Numbered from the stretch's first letter, positions 1,784-59,384 are shown. The stretch is 64,000 nt of DNA from a virus (IMGVR_UViG_3300005095_000172:1-64000); one strand, 5' to 3'. Translations and numbers: made by a program. Notes: a model not told the origin generated them from the sequence alone.

Positions 1784-2284
1784 TTACACAAAAGTTTTTT
1801 GAATTAATTCACCAGTAGGTTCATAAATTTCTTTAATATGAACGGCTCCTAAATCTCCATTTTCTTGCTGATATGTGAAGTCAATCAATCCATTTTCATA
1901 AACTTGAAAGATACCGTATTCAGTGATGGCCTTATCTTTTTGTGTGTCGATGATACTTTCTTCACTTATACCTAGTTTTTCCATTAAATCATAGATTTCA
2001 CTAAGTTCTCTTTTACTTTTTTGAAAAACTTTCTTCTCTAGTTCACGGAAATACTCATCTTGTGTCTGGTATTTTTCATACACGAATTTTCTGATATCAG
2101 AAGGAGACAACGGTTCGTTCATTTCGATCATTTTCAAGTTTTCACTTTCATCTAGGAATCCATTATCTTCTGATGTGATGAAACAAGTATCTACGAATGT
2201 AGTTGTTAACAGAGCATTCGCTCTATCTATAACACTTGATACTCTTTCTTCTGGTGATTTTTTAATTGTTGCTACTACTTTCAT
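1784..2284 (-). CDS. hypothetical protein
   Basis: ORF track; 166 aa; acidic. Confidence 0.45.
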   Translation of the reverse strand: MKVVATIKKSPEERVSSVIDRANALLTTTFVDTCFITSEDNGFLDESENLKMIEMNEPLSPSDIRKFVYEKYQTQDEYFRELEKKVFQKSKRELSEIYDLMEKLGISEESIIDTQKDKAITEYGIFQVYENGLIDFTYQQENGDLGAVHIKEIYEPTGELIQKTFV

Positions 2285-2293
2285 TTTTCTTCC

Positions 2294-2455
2294 TTATAGA
2301 GTTTCTCTGAATTCTTTTACGATTTGAGTAATTTCCTTGGTTGTATAACCATGGTCTGGGAATTTCACTTTGATGTAATTTTTTAAATCACTCGCTTTGG
2401 TCTTACCAGACATTGCCATTGCTTCTCTTAGTTTTTGTTCAGAAACTGTTTTCAT
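2294..2455 (-). CDS. small hypothetical protein (53 aa; not in the ORF track, which omits ORFs under 60 aa)
   Basis: ATG at 2453-2455 with the conserved promoter/RBS element directly upstream; reads MKTVSEQKLREAMAMSGKTKASDL... Confidence 0.35.
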   Translation of the reverse strand: MKTVSEQKLREAMAMSGKTKASDLKNYIKVKFPDHGYTTKEITQIVKEFRETL

Positions 2456-2461
2456 TTTAGT

Positions 2462-2504
2462 CCTTTCTTTTTAACTTCTATATTATAGCTAAAGTTAGCT
2501 TAAA
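2462..2504 (-). promoter_or_regulatory. conserved promoter element copy
   Basis: Consensus match 'cctttctttttaacttctatattatagctaaagttagcttaaag'. Confidence 0.6.
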
Positions 2505-2533
2505 GAGAAATAAACTGATAAAATATTCTATCA

Positions 2534-3013
2534 TTAGATCATTTCTTCATAAATGACTTCAAAATTGTTTTCAGGGTCTAGAAGTTTTACATAACAAACC
2601 TTTTCTTCCCTACCGATAAACCCAGCATAAGATTGTTCTATTAGCCCAGAACTCAGTAATTTAAAGTCTCCTGGGCCATAAGCTGACCTAACTCTAAAAA
2701 CACCTTCAGATACTTCTGAAACGTCTTCTAAAGAATATCCTCTTATCTTGAAAAGTTCAATGATTTGTTCTGGGAATAATTCGTCCAAGATAGTTTTCTT
2801 GAACTCTTCATTTTGTCCAGTAAGTGATTGAATATGTTCTACATTAAAGAGAAATCTCATAGTAGCTTCCTCTTTTTCTTTAGGCACATCAGTTACTGTC
2901 AATTGGCTTATATTTGTCAAAAGTTCTTTTTCTGCGAACTCAACTACTTCTTTGAAGCTAATGATCTTAACATTACCTGAACCGTTTCTAAATTCTAGAG
3001 TAAAAGTTTTCAT
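2534..3013 (-). CDS. hypothetical protein
   Basis: ORF track; preceded by a promoter element copy. Confidence 0.45.
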   Translation of the reverse strand: MKTFTLEFRNGSGNVKIISFKEVVEFAEKELLTNISQLTVTDVPKEKEEATMRFLFNVEHIQSLTGQNEEFKKTILDELFPEQIIELFKIRGYSLEDVSEVSEGVFRVRSAYGPGDFKLLSSGLIEQSYAGFIGREEKVCYVKLLDPENNFEVIYEEMI

Positions 3014-3020
3014 TTTTAAG

Positions 3021-3064
3021 CCTTTCTTTTTAACTTCTTTATTATAGTGTGTTTTAGCTTAAAG
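3021..3064 (-). promoter_or_regulatory. conserved promoter element copy (palindrome degenerate)
   Basis: Partial consensus match. Confidence 0.45.
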
Positions 3065-3251
3065 TTTGGTTAAATTTAGAAATTTTATTTTCCCAAATCA
3101 ATTTCATTAAATCCTCTATTAGTTTTTCAGCTTCCTTTTCACTGATTTTCATAACTTGTATCTGTTCATTTCTTCCTAAATAAAATGAAATTGAAAAGTT
3201 CCCATCTTTGTCAGGACCGCTTGGTGATGTAATTTTTGAATAATGAGTCAT
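3054..3251 (-). CDS. hypothetical protein
   Basis: ORF track. Confidence 0.35.
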   Translation of the reverse strand: MTHYSKITSPSGPDKDGNFSISFYLGRNEQIQVMKISEKEAEKLIEDLMKLIWENKISKFNQTLS

Positions 3252-3333
3252 GCTTTATACTACTCCATTTAGCTTATGATACGCTTAAAATATTTGATAC
3301 TTAAATATTGAGTATTTGAATTAAGGAGAAATC

Positions 3334-3597
3334 ATGTTAAAGGAAATTCTTGAAGAATTGAACGCTGATGTTGAAGAAAAGAAGATGACGCCAACAGAGA
3401 AAAAGGCAGCGGCAAAGTACGCAAAAACACCTCAAGCAAAAAAGGCGACAAAACTTAAAGCTAAGTGTATGGCGAAATTTGGTGATAAAGTTAGAGCTTC
3501 TGGTGGTAAACTAACTTGTAAAGCAGACGGTACTGTCGGTAAAGGTATGGATAAAGCTACTAAGAAAGCTATGATGAAAGCGAGAAAGAAGCACTAA
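3334..3597 (+). CDS. Lys/Ala-rich basic protein, histone H1 / Hc1-like (putative DNA-binding or condensing protein)
   Basis: Only well-supported plus-strand gene. Strong RBS 'taaggagaaatcATG'. Low-complexity 'KKAAAKYAKTPQAKKATKLKAK' composition. Followed by a bidirectional hairpin. Confidence 0.55.
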   Translation: MLKEILEELNADVEEKKMTPTEKKAAAKYAKTPQAKKATKLKAKCMAKFGDKVRASGGKLTCKADGTVGKGMDKATKKAMMKARKKH

Positions 3598-3607
3598 GTT
3601 TAAATTT

Positions 3608-3644
3608 GATTCAGGAAGTAAGTTTGAAACAGAATTCCTGAATC
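3608..3644. terminator. bidirectional hairpin between convergent genes (perfect 10-bp stem gattcaggaa/ttcctgaatc, 17-nt loop)
   Basis: Seen in the sequence. Lies 11 nt after the plus-gene stop and 8 nt after the minus-gene stop. U-tracts are weak. Confidence 0.45.
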
Positions 3645-3651
3645 AGTTACT

Positions 3652-4080
3652 TTAAGAAATGCTCATGTCTAAAATGATAATTTCTCCAGAAGGAGTCTGG
3701 TTTATGAAAGTCGTTACATTCAATTCACCCTTATCTATTGTTCCAGGTGTGTTTATCGTTTCGTCACAAACTACTCTATAATCATCAATACAGTTCTGGG
3801 ATTTAGCAAACTCTAAAACTCTTTCAAAACTACTTCTAACTTCCGCTCTAAGTGATTCATCGTTCATTTCAAATTGTACTTTACTCATGTAATTCGAAAG
3901 ATCAGATTTGATTTCATTTAAGCATTTTCTTACATTCGCACGTTCAAATAGGTTACAGGAAGTTTCTTGTGGATAATTTTCAACTACATTTTCGTTTGCT
4001 TCAAGACCAAATGCTACCAATAACGCAGTTGGGACATATAATTTCAGGAATAATCTTCTTGTTTTGTTGAATTCAGTCAT
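3652..4080 (-). CDS. hypothetical secreted/membrane-anchored protein
   Basis: N-terminal hydrophobic segment 'RRLFLKLYVPTALLVAFGL'. Confidence 0.4.
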   Translation of the reverse strand: MTEFNKTRRLFLKLYVPTALLVAFGLEANENVVENYPQETSCNLFERANVRKCLNEIKSDLSNYMSKVQFEMNDESLRAEVRSSFERVLEFAKSQNCIDDYRVVCDETINTPGTIDKGELNVTTFINQTPSGEIIILDMSIS

Positions 4081-4319
4081 CTTTTCTTTACCTCTAATTT
4101 ACCATCTTTATACCCATAAGACATTAGTGTTTTTGTATTTTTACCACATTTGGGGCACATAAATCTTGTATGGTTAAAAATAGAAGAGTTGTCATACACA
4201 GCTTCGCAATCATCGCAATAAGTACACTCTTTCCACTCAGTATCATTTGGAGTAAGAGTTTTCATGTACATGACAAAAAGACCGCCAATAAATCCTAATA
4301 TAAAAGTTAAAGGGCACAT
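4077..4319 (-). CDS. membrane-anchored zinc-ribbon protein
   Basis: N-terminal TM helix; CxxC...CxxC ('CTYCDDC...CPKCG'). Confidence 0.4.
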   Translation of the reverse strand: MCPLTFILGFIGGLFVMYMKTLTPNDTEWKECTYCDDCEAVYDNSSIFNHTRFMCPKCGKNTKTLMSYGYKDGKLEVKKR

Positions 4320-4422
4320 TTTAAACTTCCATCAATGCAATAAAAACGCATTTTTTGTAGGTTTTTGACCTTTCTATTAATGTACTTGTTTCACCACTTA
4401 ATGTGCTTCCTAAAATAATCAT

Positions 4423-4632
4423 CTAACACCCTTTCTTAATTTTATTTGCTTGTTCTTTAGAAATCGTTCTTAATAGATAAATTGAATTTGCGTCCATAGT
4501 TCTATTTTTATAAAGCTTAATGTCCCCGTCAATCTCTTTATCTTCAAATTCAGTTTCGATGAGACACTTTACTCCGTATTCATCAAAATCTTCGATGTAA
4601 TCAATATCCCTTAGAATAAAGTTGTAATCCAT
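4423..4632 (-). CDS. hypothetical protein
   Basis: ORF track; promoter element upstream. Confidence 0.4.
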   Translation of the reverse strand: MDYNFILRDIDYIEDFDEYGVKCLIETEFEDKEIDGDIKLYKNRTMDANSIYLLRTISKEQANKIKKGC

Positions 4633-4691: not shown

Positions 4692-4898
4692 CTACAAGAA
4701 TTTATGCACTTTCCATTTTTCTTCTACTACCTTAGTTGCAAAAACCATGTCTACTTCCATAGCTATCCTATGTAGCCAAAATACAACAGTTTCATTTCTC
4801 TTTTCCACAAAATATTTCAGTATTTCAAAATCACCGTTAAGGATCATGTTGGAAATACAAGTTGGAGTGATTTGAGTTTTATCTATGTTGATATACAT
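4692..4898 (-). CDS. hypothetical protein
   Basis: ORF track. Confidence 0.35.
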   Translation of the reverse strand: MYINIDKTQITPTCISNMILNGDFEILKYFVEKRNETVVFWLHRIAMEVDMVFATKVVEEKWKVHKFL

Positions 4899-45457: not shown

Positions 45458-46069
45458 TTAATTATTTTCTAACCCAAGTTCCTTGAGGGAAACCTTAGTT
45501 TTTAAAAGTTCAGAAATACCAATTAAACACTTTCTAATCTCCTTTTCAGTTTTTGGTTCATCCTTTAAAGTTTGAACTACATCTTCCATTGTTATTCCAA
45601 GATTCCTGAAATACTTTACAGTTTCCAATAAAGATTCCCTATATTCTGGTGGGACATTCCTCTCATCTATTGGGAAATACGAAACTTGGACTCTTCTATA
45701 AGTGCTGTTATTGTCCTTTGGGTCTGTCGCTACAAAACTTTCCGCAAACATAGCAAGTCTAGCTAAATCTTGAAGTTCTATATCATACCTTTCAACTAAT
45801 TTCATAATGATAGCAATGTAGTACCCATTATCAGCTAAGAAGTCAAGATTGTCGAAATAGAAACTTGTAAGTGCTGGTTGAAATGAAATTCCTGGTTTCT
45901 TAGGAAAAACATAAGTTTTTGCGAATAGGTATTTTGTTGTATCGAATTTTACCTTAGACCAGAACCCAGCCCCTATTTCATCTTTTAAAACAATTTCCCA
46001 AACGGCTTGCTGACACTTATTCTCAAAAAATATAATAGGTCTTTGCATTTTTCTTCTTTTAGTTTCCAT
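45458..46069 (-). CDS. hypothetical protein
   Basis: ORF track. Confidence 0.4.
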   Translation of the reverse strand: METKRRKMQRPIIFFENKCQQAVWEIVLKDEIGAGFWSKVKFDTTKYLFAKTYVFPKKPGISFQPALTSFYFDNLDFLADNGYYIAIIMKLVERYDIELQDLARLAMFAESFVATDPKDNNSTYRRVQVSYFPIDERNVPPEYRESLLETVKYFRNLGITMEDVVQTLKDEPKTEKEIRKCLIGISELLKTKVSLKELGLENN

Positions 46070-47170
46070 TTATCCCTCTTCGATATTCACTTCTAATTCT
46101 TTTATCGGGTATCCGTGTTCAAGATATTCATTCAGTCTTTCATAGCTATGTTTCAATACATAATTTTTATTCGTAACTCTTCCAGTTTTTGTTTTTGTAC
46201 TGAAATCATCAATGAAGTCAAAATACCTCATCATATCCTTTTCTTTATGAAGTCTCATTCCTCTTCCGATTGACTGATTAAGTCTAATACTAGATTTAGT
46301 ACTGGCGGCACTGAAGAAATTGTGTAACCTCTTAATGTTCAACCCAGTCGAAACTGTCTGGGCACTTCCAATGATAATCCCGTCTTCTACATTTTCCAAT
46401 AATGCTCTTACTTCATTTCTTGTTTCTCCCTCAATAGAACCTTTAATTAGGTATATATGAAAATCACTAAGAACTCTGATTTTTCTAATGTCATCATCTG
46501 AAAAATGTTTAGACAGATTTCGTTTATCTTTATCTGTCAGTTCCGTAAGAACAAAAAGTTCTTCTGTAGAATTTATTTTTTCTTTTGCTTCCAGTACTCT
46601 CTTAGGAGTAACCTTTTCAAGGATAATAGGTTCTGGGATATTGAATTTATTTGCGAGTATAAGTTTAAGTAATAAATCACCGTGAGATATAGAGTTATAC
46701 ATAACCATAGAGTTCCCGTATTTTTCTGTGGCTTGAATAACCATCTTAGCTATGAAATTATTCCTTGGGATATGTTCTTCTATAAATTTAGTTTCCTTTT
46801 GGTAATTTTTCAAAGCTTTTACTTTTTTCTTATCAGCATCAGAATAGTTCAAGTACACCGTGACAATAGTTACAGGAGTTGCTAACCCTCTTTCAATCAA
46901 TCCTTGAGGAGTAATGATTTTCTTGGATTTACCTAAAGTGGCTGAAAGCGTGAATCTCCCTTCGTAAGTCTTCGGCAAAGTTCCCGTTAGGCCAATCTTA
47001 TAAAGACAATTTCTGGATGCGTTCAGAAGCTTAGTGAGTGACTCTCCTGTTGCGAGATGACAATTAGATACATTTAGTCCATTAGCAAAATAATTATGAT
47101 TATCTTCAACATGGAGATTATAGGTATCACCTTCGTAATGACATGGTTCAATTGAAACTATTTTTGACAT
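46070..47170 (-). CDS. uvsW: UvsW helicase C-terminal fragment preceded by a 36-aa split-intein C-half (IntC)
   Basis: It starts 'MSKIVSIEPCHYEGDTYNLHVEDNHNYFANGLNVSN|CHLATGESL', with its own GGAGG RBS. The IntC block (47063-47170) parallels Npu DnaE IntC. The extein 'CHLATGESLTKLL..CLYKIGLTGTL' matches T4 UvsW 'ECHLATGKSISSII..CMFKFGLSGSL'. Confidence 0.8.
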   Translation of the reverse strand: MSKIVSIEPCHYEGDTYNLHVEDNHNYFANGLNVSNCHLATGESLTKLLNASRNCLYKIGLTGTLPKTYEGRFTLSATLGKSKKIITPQGLIERGLATPVTIVTVYLNYSDADKKKVKALKNYQKETKFIEEHIPRNNFIAKMVIQATEKYGNSMVMYNSISHGDLLLKLILANKFNIPEPIILEKVTPKRVLEAKEKINSTEELFVLTELTDKDKRNLSKHFSDDDIRKIRVLSDFHIYLIKGSIEGETRNEVRALLENVEDGIIIGSAQTVSTGLNIKRLHNFFSAASTKSSIRLNQSIGRGMRLHKEKDMMRYFDFIDDFSTKTKTGRVTNKNYVLKHSYERLNEYLEHGYPIKELEVNIEEG

Positions 47171-47314
47171 ATATATTCCTCCATGGACAAAATCATTTTT
47201 CCTAATGAATTTTTATACCACCTTTTCAATATAGTTTTATTTTCTTTAGAAAATATAGTAATCTTTAAGCTTGTTTTTGAATAGAATGTGATTTGGAAAA
47301 ATTCACCAATTTTC

Positions 47315-47773
47315 TTAAATTCTTCTACTAAAAGAATTAATCGTTCGTTCAATTTTTCTTCTTGTATCCCCATCAATTGACTCCTTCATATTGTAATATT
47401 TTTCTTCAATTTTCCAGATATTCTCATAGAACCAATCGTCATCTATGAAAACATATTCATATCCGTGCGTCTCACACCATTGTTTAGCGAATTTCTCCTT
47501 TACCTTTACTACTTCGTCGCTCATTTCAGATTTAGGTTTAATTTCATAGAGTATTTTTCCAATTTCATCTTCAAAATCTATTATATATGTATGTGAAACC
47601 CCATTATATGAGTACGGGATTCTTGTTTTTTCATACATAAGTGATGGGTTTATCATGAAAAATAAAGCTTCCCAGGAACTCCTGAGAGCAACACCATTCA
47701 CATAACATCGTGATTTAGAATATGAATTCGTGATACAAGGAGTCCACTCACCGTTAGCTATTTTTGTTTTCAT
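47315..47773 (-). CDS. putative PD-(D/E)xK nuclease (candidate homing endonuclease) between the split-intein halves
   Basis: 'HTYIIDFEDEIGKILYEIKP' D...E-x-K signature; sits inside the fractured uvsW locus. Confidence 0.4.
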   Translation of the reverse strand: MKTKIANGEWTPCITNSYSKSRCYVNGVALRSSWEALFFMINPSLMYEKTRIPYSYNGVSHTYIIDFEDEIGKILYEIKPKSEMSDEVVKVKEKFAKQWCETHGYEYVFIDDDWFYENIWKIEEKYYNMKESIDGDTRRKIERTINSFSRRI

Positions 47774-47930
47774 GTATATAGATTGTCTCTCTGCTTTTTC
47801 TTGAGGTCTTCTTTATTCATGGTATGATTTGGATTATTTTCAGTTATGTATTTAGAGTGAAGAGCGTTCTCACATTTTTTATTACAAGTTTTCCTATACG
47901 CACCATATCCATATAAACTGGAGTCTCTCT

Positions 47931-48401
47931 TTAATCTTTTTTGACAAAATGCACAGTTTTCGAGTGGGAAAAATAATCTAATATTTCAGTATTAGTCATT
48001 TCATAAAATTCAGTATGTTCTAGACCAAATTTCAAAAACATTTTCATGTATTTATTTTTTCCTCTAAGCTCCGTACTTTCGTGAAGTTTTGAGTTAGAAT
48101 ACTGTAAAGCAATAATTTCATCTTCTATATTACTTCTTTCAATGGGATATATAACTCTTCCATTTTCATCCCAAATAGCATAATTTAAATCTATATCTGT
48201 AATGTCAAATAAAACTGCAAACTTGAAGAAATAGAAGTTGATATGGTTTTCGTTAATTTTTCCTAAATCTTTTCTAAGGTAAGTTATCTTACCTTTGATC
48301 TTTGATCTTACTGCTTTTGTGTATGGGGTTTTAGTGAGGAAGAGTTTAAGTTCAGTTAGAGAACTAATTCTTTCTATTTCTTTAAATATATTTCTTTTCA
48401 T
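47931..48401 (-). CDS. hypothetical protein between the split-intein halves (possible partner of the nuclease)
   Basis: ATG with GGAG RBS; no recognisable motif. Confidence 0.4.
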   Translation of the reverse strand: MKRNIFKEIERISSLTELKLFLTKTPYTKAVRSKIKGKITYLRKDLGKINENHINFYFFKFAVLFDITDIDLNYAIWDENGRVIYPIERSNIEDEIIALQYSNSKLHESTELRGKNKYMKMFLKFGLEHTEFYEMTNTEILDYFSHSKTVHFVKKD

Positions 48402-48446
48402 CTCATTCTCCGAGTAAAATTTAAGCCATGGCTTGCCTCTATTTAA

Positions 48447-49430
48447 TCAACTTACACTTAAAATGTCATCCCCAACTAATAATTCATCAACTCTTACCCA
48501 ACCCCTTTTTGTGTTTACTTTATGGTTTCCAGTGATAATAAGTTCTTTCCCGTCCTCAGTCTTTAGCTTATACGTCTGTTCTTTTGGAAGATTCTTGTGT
48601 ACTTTTCTTACCTTTTTGTATTCATATTCACCAGAGTTTTCATTTATCGTCAATACTTCTTCACCAACTGAAATCTCACTTATTTTTTTCACCCCATCTT
48701 TTGTCAGTATTGGTGTGTTTGGATGTAAACATTCATCAACTATTACATAATCTAATTGGTCATAGTCGGACTCTTTCATAAGTATTCCCGACTGCCATGT
48801 AGTGACAACCATAGGCTTACTAAATGATTTTTCTTTCCCAGCAAATATCGTGTGAAGCTTTTTATCTGCATCTTCTTCACTCATCCCATAACTAAGGAAA
48901 TCTGAACGCATCTGTTCGGCTAATCCGACATTCGGAACTATCAGTAAACCTTTCTTTCCGTGTCTTTCGAAGAATGACATGATAAGAAAAACAATCAAAC
49001 TTTTTCCTGCCCCAGTAGCCGCTACGATTATTCTTCGTGGATGCTTGAGTACTTCCCTTAATGCGTCAACTTGATAATCATATGGTTCAAATGGGAGATT
49101 TAGTGATTTAATATGTTCTTGGATATCTGCTTCTGAGAAAAATTCTGGTTCAGTCTTAGGAGTGTAAGGTTCGTCTAAGTGGTCTTTATATCTAAGTGAA
49201 ATTGTTTCAGCTAACCCTTTTGGTATTTGCATAGATAAGTCAGATAACACCTTGAAATAGTATTTCTTACCGTCCCATATACCAGATCTGTATTTTGGTG
49301 AAAACTTATACCCATCCACAAAAACACTCAAGTCATCCATTAATTTAGTTCTTAGAACTAAAGCTTCTTCTTCTGAATGAGAATCGAAAGTTATAATAGA
49401 AAAACTTTCATCTTTATCAAAAATCTTCAT
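48447..49430 (-). CDS. uvsW: UvsW helicase N-terminal fragment followed by a 94-aa split-intein N-half (IntN)
   Basis: N-terminus 'DGYKFSPKYRSGIWDGK' matches T4 UvsW 'DGYRFNPRFRYGNWDGR'. Walker A 'ATGAGKS'. 'VIVDE|CLHPNTPILTKDG...ITGNHKVNT...' are intein blocks A/B. The ORF ends at a stop after IntN (48450-48731). Confidence 0.8.
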   Translation of the reverse strand: MKIFDKDESFSIITFDSHSEEEALVLRTKLMDDLSVFVDGYKFSPKYRSGIWDGKKYYFKVLSDLSMQIPKGLAETISLRYKDHLDEPYTPKTEPEFFSEADIQEHIKSLNLPFEPYDYQVDALREVLKHPRRIIVAATGAGKSLIVFLIMSFFERHGKKGLLIVPNVGLAEQMRSDFLSYGMSEEDADKKLHTIFAGKEKSFSKPMVVTTWQSGILMKESDYDQLDYVIVDECLHPNTPILTKDGVKKISEISVGEEVLTINENSGEYEYKKVRKVHKNLPKEQTYKLKTEDGKELIITGNHKVNTKRGWVRVDELLVGDDILSVS

Positions 49431-57096: not shown

Positions 57097-57312
57097 CTAC
57101 TCTTTATTTTCCAATAATATAGCTTTCATTTCATCAGGAAGAAGTTCTTCTGGACCTTCTTCAGTGAACTTTAGAAAGATTTCATTTTCTAAAAACTTAG
57201 TTTTCCCATACAAGTTGTTTTCTAGGACTGTAGTATTAATGGGAAACTCTGGTTCCCCACATTCCATACTCACATACACTTCCCCATCAATAGTAATTTC
57301 ATAAATTTCCAT
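57097..57312 (-). CDS. hypothetical protein
   Basis: ORF track. Confidence 0.35.
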   Translation of the reverse strand: MEIYEITIDGEVYVSMECGEPEFPINTTVLENNLYGKTKFLENEIFLKFTEEGPEELLPDEMKAILLENKE

Positions 57313-59384
57313 TACTCAACCTCGATATTGAATTTTCTGAAACTAGATTGCTCAATAGAATAGATGAATTCATCAGAACCACTGATTGGTATAGTTAGGT
57401 TAAAATCAACTTCTGATAATTTACTTTTCTTTTGGCAAATATAAGCTAACACCAAAGAAGCATACTCATATAATAGGTTAGAACCGACAGGAACATGGTA
57501 TTTCTTAAAAATATTATTCACACCTTTGATGTTTTTACCGTAAGAAGGAATTCCTTCTGATATGATCAGTTCACTGTAAAAATCGACAAGTTCTTTAAAG
57601 AAATCGTGTGTATCATCCAAATCAGGGAAGACAATTTCATCATCAGCATTTAATCCAATTTTTTGATGGAGTTTATTTTCAAGAACTTGATACCCTTGAG
57701 CACCATTGAAATCATACAAGTGGAGGTTAGTAACGTGGTGGTTGTAAGAACCAAGAGACACTTCTGGGTCAATCTCGTCTTGGATAGATTGTAGAATCAT
57801 TTCTTGTAGGAATGTCCATTCAAAAATATTTATACTCCCCCAACCCCAAATTACATCACCTGACCGAGACTTAACATTCATATGTAGTCTTTTATCAGGA
57901 GTGACAAAAAAGTCCATGGCCATGTTGCAATTATGAACAATCCAACCACCAGATTTAAGAATAAAATTATGATTATCTTCAACGGTAATATCGAAAACGC
58001 CAACAGATTCTTCCACATATTCTACGCCTATGACCTTAATGAACCCCATTGAAGTGTCTGAATTTTCTTTAATTCTTCTTTCAAATACTTTATGGTCACC
58101 GATTCTATTTTTTAATTGGTGTTTGAAATTCTTCCAAGAACCAAATTTATCAACTATCCTTGTTAAAGAAGGAAATCCCATGGTACCAAGATTTTTATTT
58201 GCGTAATCATAAGAAAGAGTTTCCAATTCTTCTATTCTCTTTTCGAAGATGTCTAAAATTTCTTCTTTCGAAAGTCCTTTAAACATTAGCCCGTGAGAAT
58301 ATCCAGGATTTTGTCTATTGGCTTCGACTTTCTTTTCAATAACCTTCTTATTTCTGCTTGGATTATTTAGTAATTTATGAATTCTATTGTGTTCACTTTC
58401 TGTCAACAGCTCTAAATTTTCCTTAGAATTATCAAAATGATCTCCATTTTTATGATGAACAGTCATCCCTTCTGGAATTTCTCCATAAAAGTATTCAAAT
58501 GAATCTCTATGCCAAGAGGTCAAATTCGAGAATCTCTTATTTTCTCTTAAATTCTTTTTAATCAAACCACCGTTCTCATGAATTGGAGTCGAAAGTATAT
58601 AGTCACCTATTTCGATTTCAGATGCTTTTTTCTGTATTACGGTGTATGGTTGTCTGCTCCTTCCAACAAAAGAATATTCTTTCATATACATAGAATGATC
58701 TTCAGTAACACAAACCTCATCTCCGTTACTTAATGTGATCTTTAAGTATCTACTCACGTCTTTTGTTTTACCAGACCACTCAACTCTTTTTAGTTCCACG
58801 CATTCTGAACTTTCGTTATAAGAGTAAACCAAATCTTCAGTTGTTACTTCAGATATTCTTTTATACCCTGAGTTCGTGAGAATTTCTGTATGAGAAAGGA
58901 AACAAGGTTTGTCCAATGTTTTATCAAGCCCATACACATTCTCCAAACTTTCTTTAGTATCCAAGTTAGGGTCACCAATGTAAAGAGTAGCTCTTCTTGT
59001 ATAAATTCCTTCGTTTCTAAATTGTTCAATCACGTCATCTAATTGATTACCGTTCTTAATTCTTTCAGGATAACCTCCACGCCAATTTTTTCCGTCATCT
59101 GAAAAGTCTTTTGCTCTTGGTAAGAAAAACGATAGATAAGGGTCTATTCCATTGGACCCAGCGAATACCCAAAAAGTTTCTGCGATAGAAGCAAAAATAT
59201 TATTCTTTCTTCCATTCAGTGAAAGGTGTCTAGCCTTTGGATTTTCGATAGTAGAGAAGAAGTTATAGATAGTGTTGATGTCTCCATTCCTTGATTTTGT
59301 TCTATAACCATTGTAGATTAATTCTTCTAACGCTTTCAAGACAGCGTCGTTTATTGTCTTTCCTTCTATAAAGGTAGGCTTCAT
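57312..59384 (-). CDS. thymidylate synthase-family enzyme (ThyA or dNMP hydroxymethylase) carrying an HNH intein at the catalytic Cys
   Basis: Exteins 'IFASIAETFWVFAGSNG' and 'LDKP|C..NMAMDFFV..RSGDVIWGWGSINIFEWTFL' align to the TS 'ELLWF..G', 'PCHxxxQFYV', 'RSxDxxLGxPFN' regions. The intervening 325 aa have intein blocks. Confidence 0.8.
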   Translation of the reverse strand: MKPTFIEGKTINDAVLKALEELIYNGYRTKSRNGDINTIYNFFSTIENPKARHLSLNGRKNNIFASIAETFWVFAGSNGIDPYLSFFLPRAKDFSDDGKNWRGGYPERIKNGNQLDDVIEQFRNEGIYTRRATLYIGDPNLDTKESLENVYGLDKTLDKPCFLSHTEILTNSGYKRISEVTTEDLVYSYNESSECVELKRVEWSGKTKDVSRYLKITLSNGDEVCVTEDHSMYMKEYSFVGRSRQPYTVIQKKASEIEIGDYILSTPIHENGGLIKKNLRENKRFSNLTSWHRDSFEYFYGEIPEGMTVHHKNGDHFDNSKENLELLTESEHNRIHKLLNNPSRNKKVIEKKVEANRQNPGYSHGLMFKGLSKEEILDIFEKRIEELETLSYDYANKNLGTMGFPSLTRIVDKFGSWKNFKHQLKNRIGDHKVFERRIKENSDTSMGFIKVIGVEYVEESVGVFDITVEDNHNFILKSGGWIVHNCNMAMDFFVTPDKRLHMNVKSRSGDVIWGWGSINIFEWTFLQEMILQSIQDEIDPEVSLGSYNHHVTNLHLYDFNGAQGYQVLENKLHQKIGLNADDEIVFPDLDDTHDFFKELVDFYSELIISEGIPSYGKNIKGVNNIFKKYHVPVGSNLLYEYASLVLAYICQKKSKLSEVDFNLTIPISGSDEFIYSIEQSSFRKFNIEVE
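57930..58904 (-). mobile_element. intein (325 aa) with an HNH homing-endonuclease domain, inserted at the TS-family active-site Cys
   Basis: Begins 'CFLSHTEILT', block B 'TEDHSMY', HNH 'HHKNGDHFDN...EHNRIH', ends 'VEDNHNFILKSGGWIVHN' + C. Confidence 0.8.

Follow-up and report, generated by a model that had tools for sequence, protein, structure and literature searches.

The uvsW gene of a T4-like phage, contained in a 64,000-nucleotide stretch of viral DNA (IMGVR_UViG_3300005095_000172:1-64000, hereafter the window), is in all likelihood a fractured gene, with a split intein dividing the helicase at its motif II, a homing endonuclease gene (HEG) placed between the two halves and this HEG now decaying; we put the probability of this reading at roughly 0.85. 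A preliminary description of the same DNA had proposed that a split intein breaks uvsW at the DE/CH site and that the gap holds a free-standing endonuclease gene, and both the colinearity of the encoded protein with UvsW and curated intein models bear this out. All features of the locus lie on the minus strand and are listed here from 5' to 3' on that strand.

48732-49430, minus strand: N-extein of UvsW, 233 aa; UvsW_N and RecA-like domain 1 up to motif II ...VIVDE (Pfam UvsW_N, ResIII, DEAD)
48447-48731, minus strand: IntN, 94 aa plus TGA; Cys1 codon at 48729-48731, TGA at 48447-48449 (TIGR01445, Pfam Intein_splicing)
47931-48401, minus strand: HEG fragment 1 (ORF-B), 156 aa; own GGAG ribosome-binding site (RBS) and ATG; aligns to the HEG ORF of the related locus L007
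47773-47985, minus strand: HEG fragment 2, 71 codons without a start codon; Zn-ribbon and NUMOD-like linker (frame translation and alignment to L007)
47315-47773, minus strand: HEG fragment 3 (ORF-A), 152 aa; TnsA-like PD-(D/E)xK nuclease domain
47158-47373, minus strand: small conserved gene, 71 aa; AAGGAG-N7-ATG
47063-47170, minus strand: IntC, 36 aa; own GGAGG RBS, ATG at 47170 (TIGR01443)
46070-47062, minus strand: C-extein of UvsW, 330 aa plus stop; Cys+1 codon at 47060-47062; remainder of domain 1 and Helicase_C

The N-half ORF (48447-49430, minus strand, 327 aa) has a GAGGGG RBS 5' of its ATG at 49430 and runs through UvsW_N and ResIII/DEAD domains to ...YVIVDE, after which the 94-aa N-terminal part of a Hint domain (CLHPNTPILT...DDILSVS) ends in TGA. 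The C-half ORF (46070-47170, minus strand, 366 aa) begins, as had been described, at a separate start with GGAGG 7 nt 5' of the ATG, and its IntC is followed directly by CHLATGESL; a search for a terminator between the uvsW halves gave no signal above chance. Joined conceptually, the exteins form a full-length protein of 563 aa (64.5 kDa) in which Cys+1 restores the DECH box, and recomputation returned exactly this length and mass, as well as the 94 and 36 aa of the intein halves, as originally reported. The spliced product is colinear with T4 UvsW (2OCA, E 1.8e-67), with the N-extein aligned to 2OCA residues 24-~230, DECHLATG identical and gapless across the junction, and an insertion of ~65 aa relative to T4 UvsW (query 369-434). 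Pfam UvsW_N scores 31.7 against a cut-off of 25.3, the C-extein gives a weak Pfam Helicase_C match and a match to phrog_9690 at 8e-65, and PHROG families are already present for both half-proteins.

The region between the halves had been described as holding two nuclease-like ORFs. Both ORFs exist, and that at 47315-47773 is indeed nuclease-like by its Pfam match, but the one at 47931-48401 is the frameshifted N-terminal domain of the same HEG, and a third HEG fragment containing a Zn-ribbon (47773-47985) had been overlooked, as had the 71-aa gene (47158-47373). ORF-B, the Zn-ribbon piece and ORF-A are three fragments of one HEG of ~340-400 aa, since the continuous 266-aa HEG ORF of L007 has its counterpart in the window spread over three successive frames, with a joint E of 3e-37. 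ORF-B, which aligns to residues 49-131 of the L007 ORF and is its N-terminal domain, with a presumed role in DNA binding, otherwise matches only itself among 5.8 billion proteins and has no phage tblastn match; it ends early after a 1-nt deletion near 47958/47959. Fragment 2 continues in the -1 frame relative to ORF-B, aligns to L007 residues 133-195 at 43% and carries a CxxC...CxxxC pattern (ENCAFCQKRL...KTCNKKCENAL...ENNPNH...KEDLKKKQRDN), its Zn-ribbon resembling those of S16 gp114.1, phiR1-RT g167 and the related locus L008. A second 1-nt deletion near 47791/47792 shifts the nuclease domain into another frame, and both deletions lie in or beside short A-runs (of four and five A). The window thus contains, at 47315-48401 on the minus strand, a free-standing, co-oriented HEG that is intact in relatives and fragmented here, the two 1-nt deletions having broken it so that no single intact ORF spans both the DNA-binding and the nuclease domain. 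An excess of third-position mismatches is retained in the fragments, indicating that the lesions are recent and that some residual activity may persist.

An alternative that we regard as improbable, albeit the best surviving of those considered, is that the HEG still functions, either as a full-length protein, if ribosomes or the RNA polymerase slip at the A-runs (a -1 slip at AAG-AAA-AAG, for instance), or as separate DNA-binding and nuclease subunits. A -1 shift is what is needed at both breaks, the second break (...CTC AAG AAA AAG CAG...) resembles a slippery site, and a -1 slip there gives a gapless alignment to the L007 HEG; moreover, ORF-B has a good RBS and the substitution pattern of the fragments is still coding-like. 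However, the first break (TCG AAA ACT) shows no recognisable slippery heptamer, and the putative start of ORF-A has a poor RBS and an ATG corresponding merely to a conserved internal Met of the intact family members. The HEG is in one frame in the loci L092, L091 and L008, in S16 and in ~32 IMG/VR loci, and is broken elsewhere in L007 (2-nt and 13-nt deletions), so that the frameshifts, being unconserved among relatives, look like decay and not like a programmed event. HEG remnants and complete HEG losses at other loci point to decay as the common fate.

The intein halves are not chance resemblances, since curated intein models are passed above their cut-offs, with IntN scoring 43.6 bits against TIGR01445 intein_Nterm (cut-off 24.5), IntC 23.0 bits against TIGR01443 intein_Cterm (cut-off 15.6) and Pfam Intein_splicing (PF14890) giving 39.9 against 35.8. 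When fused, the halves match solved mini-inteins across residues 5-126, the closest being DnaX (7CFV, 2.7e-11) and gp41-1 (6QAZ, 1.4e-8); the parallel to the DnaE IntC is less close than drawn in the preliminary description, the DnaE match being much weaker than those to gp41-1 and the Spl DnaX mini-intein. In an alignment of six alleles (alignment A4) the class-1 N-terminal nucleophile, Cys at residue 234 of the N-half after ...VIVDE, is invariant, as are T, G, N and H of block B (ITGNHKV), and the block F motif NHNY.AN, the terminal Asn and Cys+1 at the end of blocks F/G (...DNHNYFANGLNVSN|C). IntC begins MSKIVSIE and ends ...NGLNVSN, so that the penultimate block-G His, common though not universal in class-1 inteins, is absent in the window and replaced by Ser; the same position is Ser in L007 and the Lak megaphages, Ala in the related locus L009 and His in Salmonella phage S16 and Proteus phage PM2. 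Some inteins splice without a penultimate His, and its absence is compatible with class-1 membership. The IntN stop and the IntC RBS and start fall between blocks B and F, the canonical position of HEG insertion, as in a fractured gene. The stop of IntN is at the identical alignment position in L007, S16, PM2 and Lak (alignment A4), and the split point is the same in all five split alleles; in the contiguous mini-intein of L009 it corresponds to ...ALLYS|TKICK..., without loss of any residue. Net charges of the two halves are complementary, +1 for IntN and -4 for IntC.

We envision that the ancestral gene carried a cis-splicing mini-intein in the codons for helicase motif II (DE/CH), and that a free-standing HEG comprising the N-terminal domain, Zn-ribbon and TnsA-like nuclease would have inserted into it, whereby IntN gained a stop at its end and IntC an RBS and start codon of its own. 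The resulting half-proteins of 37.5 and 41.8 kDa would associate via the charge-complementary intein halves and undergo class-1 trans-splicing, by an N-S acyl shift at Cys1, trans-thioesterification to Cys+1 and cyclisation of the terminal Asn, to release the 563-aa UvsW with its DECH box intact. The HEG would later have been disabled by the two single-base deletions, placing the locus in the decay phase of the homing cycle, with the 71-aa gene sitting between HEG and IntC and overlapping both.

Somewhat less probable still than a functional HEG is the possibility that the halves do not splice, in which case uvsW would either be a split pseudogene without function or encode a two-chain helicase that the intein halves hold together purely as non-covalent dimerisation modules. 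UvsW is not strictly essential in T4. This and the Ser in place of the penultimate His would be compatible with a loss of splicing, and in Aeh1 nrdA there is a precedent for a split phage gene that works without it (cited in PMC2677866 and PMC3045599). Against this, split alleles of only 42-60% identity all retain Cys1, the block-B Thr and His, the terminal Asn and Cys+1, which together make up the residues that class-1 splicing requires; no helicase could arise from the contiguous mini-intein form (L009 and 8 other loci) unless it spliced, and an unspliced HINT domain of 130 aa inside the DExH box would be expected to occupy the ATPase active site. Selection argues in the same direction: relative to L007, pN/pS is 0.22-0.35 for the exteins, 0.45 for IntN and 0.26 for IntC (75% identical to the L007 IntC), values that are only rough because synonymous sites are saturated between the two loci, and by this measure exteins and intein halves alike appear to be under purifying selection, strongly so for the exteins. 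It is from the conserved catalytic residues and from selection that trans-splicing of the two halves is inferred.

The fractured uvsW is not rare. The arrangement had been thought to be known mainly from metagenomic data, but the same fractured uvsW is present in the cultured phages S16, STP4-a, CF-SP2 and PM2, unannotated as such, as well as in Lak megaphages and dozens of IMG/VR contigs, so that it is common in public phage sequences; the searchable literature contains no description of a split uvsW. The insertion site recurs in S16, PM2, the Lak megaphages and the majority of 61 non-redundant IMG/VR loci; among these 61, a one-ORF HEG accompanies the split in 33, the split lacks an HEG in 13, 9 are contiguous and 2 retain HEG remnants. 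Intact HEGs measure 341 aa in L092, 271 aa in L008 and 291 aa in both S16 and PM2. Very improbable is an intein of the ordinary contiguous kind, its endonuclease nested inside, that only appears fragmented through sequencing or assembly errors. In favour of such an intein, both breaks in the HEG frame are deletions of 1 nt within or beside A-runs, and IntN and ORF-B share a frame with one TGA and 14 codons between them. However, repairing both deletions would still leave the HEG with a separate RBS, start and stop, five more stops separate its frame from IntC, the IntN stop and Met-IntC start occupy the same alignment positions in L007, S16, PM2, Lak, L008, L091 and L092, the HEG of intact relatives is a free-standing gene that either overlaps its neighbours or is read in a different frame, the L007 lesions are not homopolymer slips, and 17 long ORFs of the window, together 19.9 kb with 371 A/T runs of at least 4, contain 0 frameshifts, a count that is partly circular as these ORFs were picked as intact.

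The 71-aa gene overlaps the 3' end of the HEG, and its stop overlaps the start of the C-half. Its product has no family match in Pfam, PHROGs (at 1e-3) or NCBIfam, and its BFVD matches are uncharacterised small proteins. The predicted fold, alpha-beta3-alpha, suggests a structural similarity to T7 Gp1.2, a dGTPase inhibitor, at 4% identity in the structural alignment; sequence homology to Gp1.2 was not found. Given its position the gene may couple translation into the C-half. Carried along with the selfish element as a passenger, it could encode a protein for host takeover or anti-defence, a dGTPase inhibitor for instance, or equally one required for expression of the IntC half.

The locus is a textbook-quality case of a known phenomenon and extends the range of host genes to uvsW and that of invading endonucleases to a TnsA-like nuclease; the accepted view of split-intein function is unchanged. 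Several diverged natural split-intein pairs, with C-halves of ~36 aa, Cys+1 and a charge polarity that is opposite between two clades, are candidate orthogonal protein-ligation tools, and the intact HEGs (S16 gp114.1, L092) may represent a new specificity class.

Turning to known systems, the nuclease domain of ORF-A shares with the N-terminal nuclease domain of Tn7 TnsA a match to Pfam Tn7_TnsA-like_N (PF08722) of 28.1 bits, above the gathering cut-off of 26.5, together with the E...D...(D/E)xK residues and restriction-endonuclease fold of TnsA-like PD-(D/E)xK enzymes. Across 21 family members E35, E48, D66, E77 and K79 are invariant and no His is, and the E/D/ExK residues align with the catalytic E20/D55/E65-K67 of T7 endonuclease I. 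In contrast to Tn7 there is no transposon here, nor a TnsB, a TnsC or a C-terminal TnsA domain; rather, a Zn-ribbon is joined to the nuclease, which is located inside intein-split phage uvsW, terminase and phoH genes. I-Bth0305I and the other EDxHD (Vsr-like) homing endonucleases (PMC3239194) likewise have an N-terminal DNA-binding region followed by a C-terminal nuclease of restriction-endonuclease fold and likewise occur within fractured genes. They differ in having a NUMOD2/HTH pair where the window family has a Zn-ribbon, and in the EDxHD motif with its His general base (defined in PMC3239194), in place of which the window family has the classical E...D...ExK and no invariant His; there is no sequence-level match between the two groups, and even the family profile gives none to 3R3P or Vsr. 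The searchable literature holds no assay of site-specific cleavage or super-Mendelian inheritance for the TnsA-like family. Only tentatively do we suggest that Zn-ribbon plus TnsA-like nuclease constitutes an undescribed phage HEG lineage, which would join I-Ssp6803I and EDxHD as a third group of restriction-endonuclease fold and would repeatedly have made split inteins out of mini-inteins, in no fewer than three genes (uvsW, terminase large subunit and phoH), and whose cassette in this clade carries a 71-aa passenger with a putative T7 Gp1.2-like fold; that all of these elements hold together is doubtful.

The cyanobacterial DnaE inteins (Npu/Ssp) are, like that of the window, naturally split class-1 inteins with a C-half of ~36 aa, Cys1, Cys+1 and charge-complementary halves, but their halves are at distant loci without an HEG and their similarity to the window intein is weak (7QIL, E 3.5e-4, versus 1e-8 to 1e-11 for gp41-1 and DnaX). 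The charge polarity of the DnaE split intein is opposite to that of the window intein. Much closer are S16 gp114/gp114.1/gp115 (NC_020416), STP4-a, CF-SP2 and PM2, where the DE/CH site and split point are the same as in the window, the intein is homologous (42-45% identity over the alignment A4 segment, short extein flanks included), the HEG is of the same family (34-42% in the nuclease domain) and the background is again a T4-like myovirus; in GenBank the S16-type parts are labelled 'DNA helicase / hypothetical protein / DNA helicase'. Unlike the window, S16 and PM2 have the HEG as one intact 291-aa ORF overlapping both halves, lack the 71-aa gene and retain the penultimate His, and the charge polarity of the halves is reversed (IntN -7, IntC +5, versus +1 and -4).

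Fractured genes were described in ocean metagenomes, at gp41-1, NrdJ-1, IMPDH-1 and other split-intein loci, by Dassa et al. in 2009 (PMC2677866), who proposed a series leading from mini-intein through HEG invasion to HEG loss. The window differs from those loci in that its HEG is neither GIY-YIG nor Vsr-like/EDxHD, is frameshifted and has no TATAAATA-containing hairpin upstream, and in the extra small gene between HEG and IntC; uvsW is also absent from the eight host types listed there. Shared are a phage origin, a DNA-metabolism gene broken at a conserved catalytic motif, a free-standing HEG between the parts with everything co-oriented, and an HEG 3' region that overlaps the downstream gene part. 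Moreover, all stages of the series are found for the uvsW allele (contiguous, split with intact HEG, with frameshifted HEG as in the window and L007, with remnants, and split without HEG), so that the model becomes testable on a single allele family. The window locus belongs to this known class of fractured genes, with a host gene and an HEG lineage additional to those listed in PMC2677866.

The fracture of the uvsW gene is real, and the preliminary description of the locus was right in outline. All of it is encoded on the minus strand, arranged as follows.

48447-49430, minus: N-half ORF, 327 aa; UvsW_N and ResIII/DEAD to ...YVIVDE, then a Hint N-part and a TGA stop
47931-48401, minus: ORF-B, first endonuclease piece
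47773-47985, minus: Zn piece, second endonuclease piece
47315-47773, minus: ORF-A, third endonuclease piece
47158-47373, minus: small ORF, 71 aa, AAGGAG-N7-ATG, within 216 nt upstream of the C-terminal intein half (IntC)
46070-47170, minus: C-half ORF, 366 aa, GGAGG-N7-ATG upstream; MSKIVSIE...NGLNVSN, then CHLATGESL

Recalculated by script, the sizes originally proposed are exact, both for the parts (N-extein 233, IntN 94, IntC 36 and C-extein 330 aa) and for the predicted spliced product (563 aa, 64.5 kDa). The conceptual spliced protein matches the sequence of the T4 UvsW crystal structure (2OCA) with an E value of 1.8e-67, and because the alignment is gapless across the junction (window DYVIVDECHLATGESL, T4 GMMMNDECHLATGKSI) the intein is located within helicase motif II, where splicing would restore the DECH box as had been predicted. 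We infer that the two uvsW halves are joined by protein trans-splicing. The nearby genes for a sliding clamp, a gp32-type SSB, an exonuclease, a primase and an RNA ligase confirm the T4-like replication and recombination context; no near-identical phage was found when megablast was run with this region on 50,697 phage records. The window is apparently itself metagenomic, since the database entries that are 100% identical to ORF-A and ORF-B belong to a single JGI contig of 140,623 bp. Compared with T4 UvsW, ∼65 additional residues separate the two RecA-like domains (...LANKFNIPEPI...IRVLSDF; spliced-product positions 369-434, about the 46,000-46,065 region of the window in the C-extein), an insertion that is kept in the related IMG/VR contig L007.

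Both intein halves are recognized by profile, the N-half by TIGR01445 (intein N-terminal region, 43.6 bits, cut-off 24.5) and the C-half by TIGR01443 (intein C-terminal region, 23.0, cut-off 15.6), with a Pfam Intein_splicing score of 39.9 (cut-off 35.8). When fused, the halves (130 aa) match solved mini-inteins almost end to end, the best being Spl DnaX (7CFV, 2.7e-11), gp41-1 (6QAZ, 1.4e-8) and NrdJ-1 (8UBS, 4e-5); DnaE (7QIL), to which a close parallel had been drawn, is much weaker at 3.5e-4. In an alignment of six alleles (the window, L007, Salmonella phage S16, Proteus phage PM2, Prevotella phage Lak-B2 and the contiguous mini-intein of contig L009) Cys1, the block-B TGNH, the block-F NHNY.A, the terminal Asn, Cys+1 and His+2 are invariant. 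In the window the penultimate intein residue is Ser rather than His, at a position that varies within the family (S, H or A). All five split alleles are divided at the same position, corresponding to ...ALLYS/TKICKIEQ... of L009, so that no part of the intein is missing. Comparison with L007, whose C-half is 76% identical, indicates purifying selection, with pN/pS values of 0.22-0.35 for the exteins, 0.45 for IntN and 0.26 for IntC that are to be read against saturated synonymous sites. The halves carry complementary charges, +1 for IntN and -4 for IntC in the window (48450-48731 and 47063-47170) and +4 and -5 in L007, while in the S16 clade the polarity is reversed (IntN -7, IntC +5; L001 3950-4930 and 5732-6676, L001 being S16). 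This reversal points to co-evolving electrostatic pairing, and the intein halves of the clades are possibly orthogonal pairs.

The gap between the halves had been described as holding two nuclease-like ORFs; it contains one endonuclease in pieces, the middle one of which had been overlooked. ORF-A (47315-47773) matches Pfam Tn7_TnsA-like_N (28.1 versus 26.5), and its similarity to two PHROG endonuclease families is limited to their C-terminal half. Translation in all frames shows that ORF-B and ORF-A flank a third coding piece, which is in another frame, lacks a start codon and reads ENCAFCQKRL...KTCNKKCENAL...ENNPNH...KEDLKKKQRDN, a Zn-ribbon and linker resembling those of S16 gp114.1 and of g167 from Yersinia phage phiR1-RT. 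A continuous 266-aa ORF of L007 aligns to ORF-B, the Zn piece and ORF-A in three successive frames (joint E 3e-37), in the DNA alignment the window lacks one base near 47958/47959 and another near 47791/47792, and intact endonucleases occur as a single ORF of 341 aa in contig L092, with 271 aa in contig L008 and with 291 aa in S16 and PM2. The three pieces are therefore one endonuclease gene. A separate gene or second nuclease at ORF-B was considered and rejected, since L007 identifies ORF-B as the N-terminal domain of the endonuclease; on its own ORF-B has no Pfam, PHROG or NCBIfam match, no tblastn match among phages, no BLASTP similarity to S16 gp114.1 and nothing but itself in a search of 5.8 billion proteins.

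The lesions of L007 lie elsewhere, 2 nt being deleted within the nuclease core and 13 nt close to the end, and as judged from these sequences the gene is a homing endonuclease decaying independently in the two lineages. The frame breaks are unlikely to be sequencing artefacts, given that 17 long ORFs, with 371 A/T runs at least four long among them, are unbroken, and programmed frameshifting, by which the pieces would be read as one protein, is improbable as well. As to the timing of the decay, the fragments keep an excess of third-codon-position mismatches, so the lesions are young compared with the split between the window and L007; a dN/dS test of pseudogenisation was dropped because synonymous sites are saturated, leaving codon-position patterns alone as usable. 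The endonuclease is presumably inactive in the window, having probably homed at uvsW in the past. IntN and ORF-B share a reading frame, separated by one TGA and 14 codons (48402-48449), and after the IntN stop both the window (AAGCCATGGCTT) and L007 (AAGGTCTACCTT, about 4787-4825) have a short palindrome, the two differing in sequence and both able to pair. Folding z-scores for hairpins upstream of the endonuclease or IntC are weak and not significant (-1.4 to +0.25), and no promoters, terminators or T4 late promoters were found above chance.

Also missing from the initial account of the gap is the 71-aa gene at 47158-47373, which overlaps the endonuclease 3' end and whose stop overlaps the C-half ATG; these overlaps suggest translational coupling of the small ORF into the IntC half. 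Searched exhaustively, 1.84 billion representative proteins contain only four relatives, namely itself, two stand-alone proteins (70 and 72 aa) and a fusion in L007, and both stand-alone proteins occupy the identical position in the fractured uvsW loci of contigs L091 and L092. Because small ORF and endonuclease are fused in L007, the former was first taken for a C-terminal extension of the latter. That reading was rejected, the small ORF being a separate overlapping gene in L091 and L092; also against it, the endonuclease family ends ...RKI.N..K..* in S16, Campylobacter phage CPt10, L091, L092 and the window, and the L007 fusion derives from the 13-nt deletion. A resemblance of the small ORF to Gp1.2 is a lead and not a finding.

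Across 21 members of the nuclease family E35, E48, D66, E77 and K79 are invariant (RSSWE...IxDF...YEIKP) and no His is. Searches with the family profile bring up T7 endonuclease I at a weak level, its catalytic residues in register with those of the family, and give no sequence link to I-Bth0305I or Vsr; the enzyme thus belongs among the classical PD-(D/E)xK nucleases, in the TnsA type. With the EDxHD homing endonucleases of fractured genes it has in common a fold superfamily and the order of N-terminal DNA-binding and C-terminal nuclease parts, but it lacks their defining motif. Members also reside within the intein-split terminase large subunit of phiR1-RT and many T4-like phages (junctions IYIDE/CVSKDT... 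and ...NNVESHN/CAFIP), the phoH-like gene of CPt10 and a helicase of Lak megaphages. The phiR1-RT terminase (L005 1887-4736, L005 being this phage) has an atypical early split, with an IntN of ∼40 aa (CVSKDT...NAKE*) and an IntC of ∼107 aa ending ...NNVESHN/CAFIP, a layout annotated in many T4-like phages.

The thymidylate synthase ORF of the window (57312-59384, minus, 690 aa) contains a second, contiguous intein (...LDKP/CFLSHTEIL ... GGWIVHN/CNMAMD; Pfam Intein_splicing 55.7 bits over residues 168-485) with an HNH_3 endonuclease domain nested in-frame at residues 292-334. Inteins with HNH domains are less common than those with LAGLIDADG. In L009 a 472-aa gene beside uvsW (3059-4477), which might at a guess from its sequence be RecA/UvsX-like, apparently has an intein too (...VDTPDGPQYVP ... 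GISSHN/SGKSF). Directly upstream of the uvsW N-half L007 carries a 597-aa endonuclease-like ORF (1997-3790) with repeated NUMOD-like KETNL.RYG motifs, and S16 has gp113, annotated as a homing endonuclease, in the same place (L001 3312-3947). In T4 the gene between inh and uvsW is segE, whose target is uvsW (PMC2988022). The region flanking uvsW on its 5' side resembles a homing-endonuclease hotspot.

The arrangement had been thought to be known mainly from metagenomic data, yet phages S16 (gp114/gp114.1/gp115), STP4-a, CF-SP2, where the halves are annotated uvsW_1 and uvsW_2, and PM2 agree with the window in site, split point and endonuclease family; PHROGs families match both half-proteins end to end. 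A pattern scan of IMG/VR gave 301 relatives, the best 80 of which reduce to 61 non-redundant loci, nearly all with the DE/C site in a UvsW-like host.

Table. Classes among the 61 non-redundant loci (from the best 80 of 301 relatives).
Split, TnsA-like endonuclease as one gap-filling ORF (takes in the L007 contig, actually frameshifted): 33/61
Split, short gap without endonuclease: 13/61
Contiguous mini-intein: 9/61
Endonuclease remnants only: 2/61
Split, ∼1 kb gap without TnsA-like match: 2/61
Lak-like, recoded: 1/61
IntC not within the locus: 1/61

The endonuclease-free split class is genuine, as a stop is present in its loci together with an RBS and a Met-IntC. Contigs L030 and L061 have fractured uvsW genes with gaps of about 0.9-1.1 kb and no TnsA-like nuclease match; there the same intein may harbour an endonuclease of another family. 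The Lak-B2 helicase (L006 2157-4953, L006 being this phage) is fractured likewise, with several TAG codons read through in its endonuclease and IntC, in keeping with the stop-codon recoding that has been reported for Lak phages.

Among searchable papers, subscription journals being outside the search, none relevant was found that joins an intein or split intein to UvsW, or S16 to a split uvsW, and no description of the TnsA-like family as a homing endonuclease was found under TnsA, homing endonuclease and intein. The fractured genes of Dassa 2009 (PMC2677866) have as hosts gp41, IMPDH, DnaE, NrdA, NrdJ, ligase and terminase, with endonucleases that are GIY-YIG or Vsr-like. From these comparisons the present locus is therefore not something new in kind, and fractured uvsW genes are already plentiful in public sequences. 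Within a series that matches the gene-breaking model of Dassa 2009 (PMC2677866), the window stands at an early stage of decay, and its UvsW host and TnsA-like endonuclease, both missing from the listing in that paper, are additions to the fractured-gene class.
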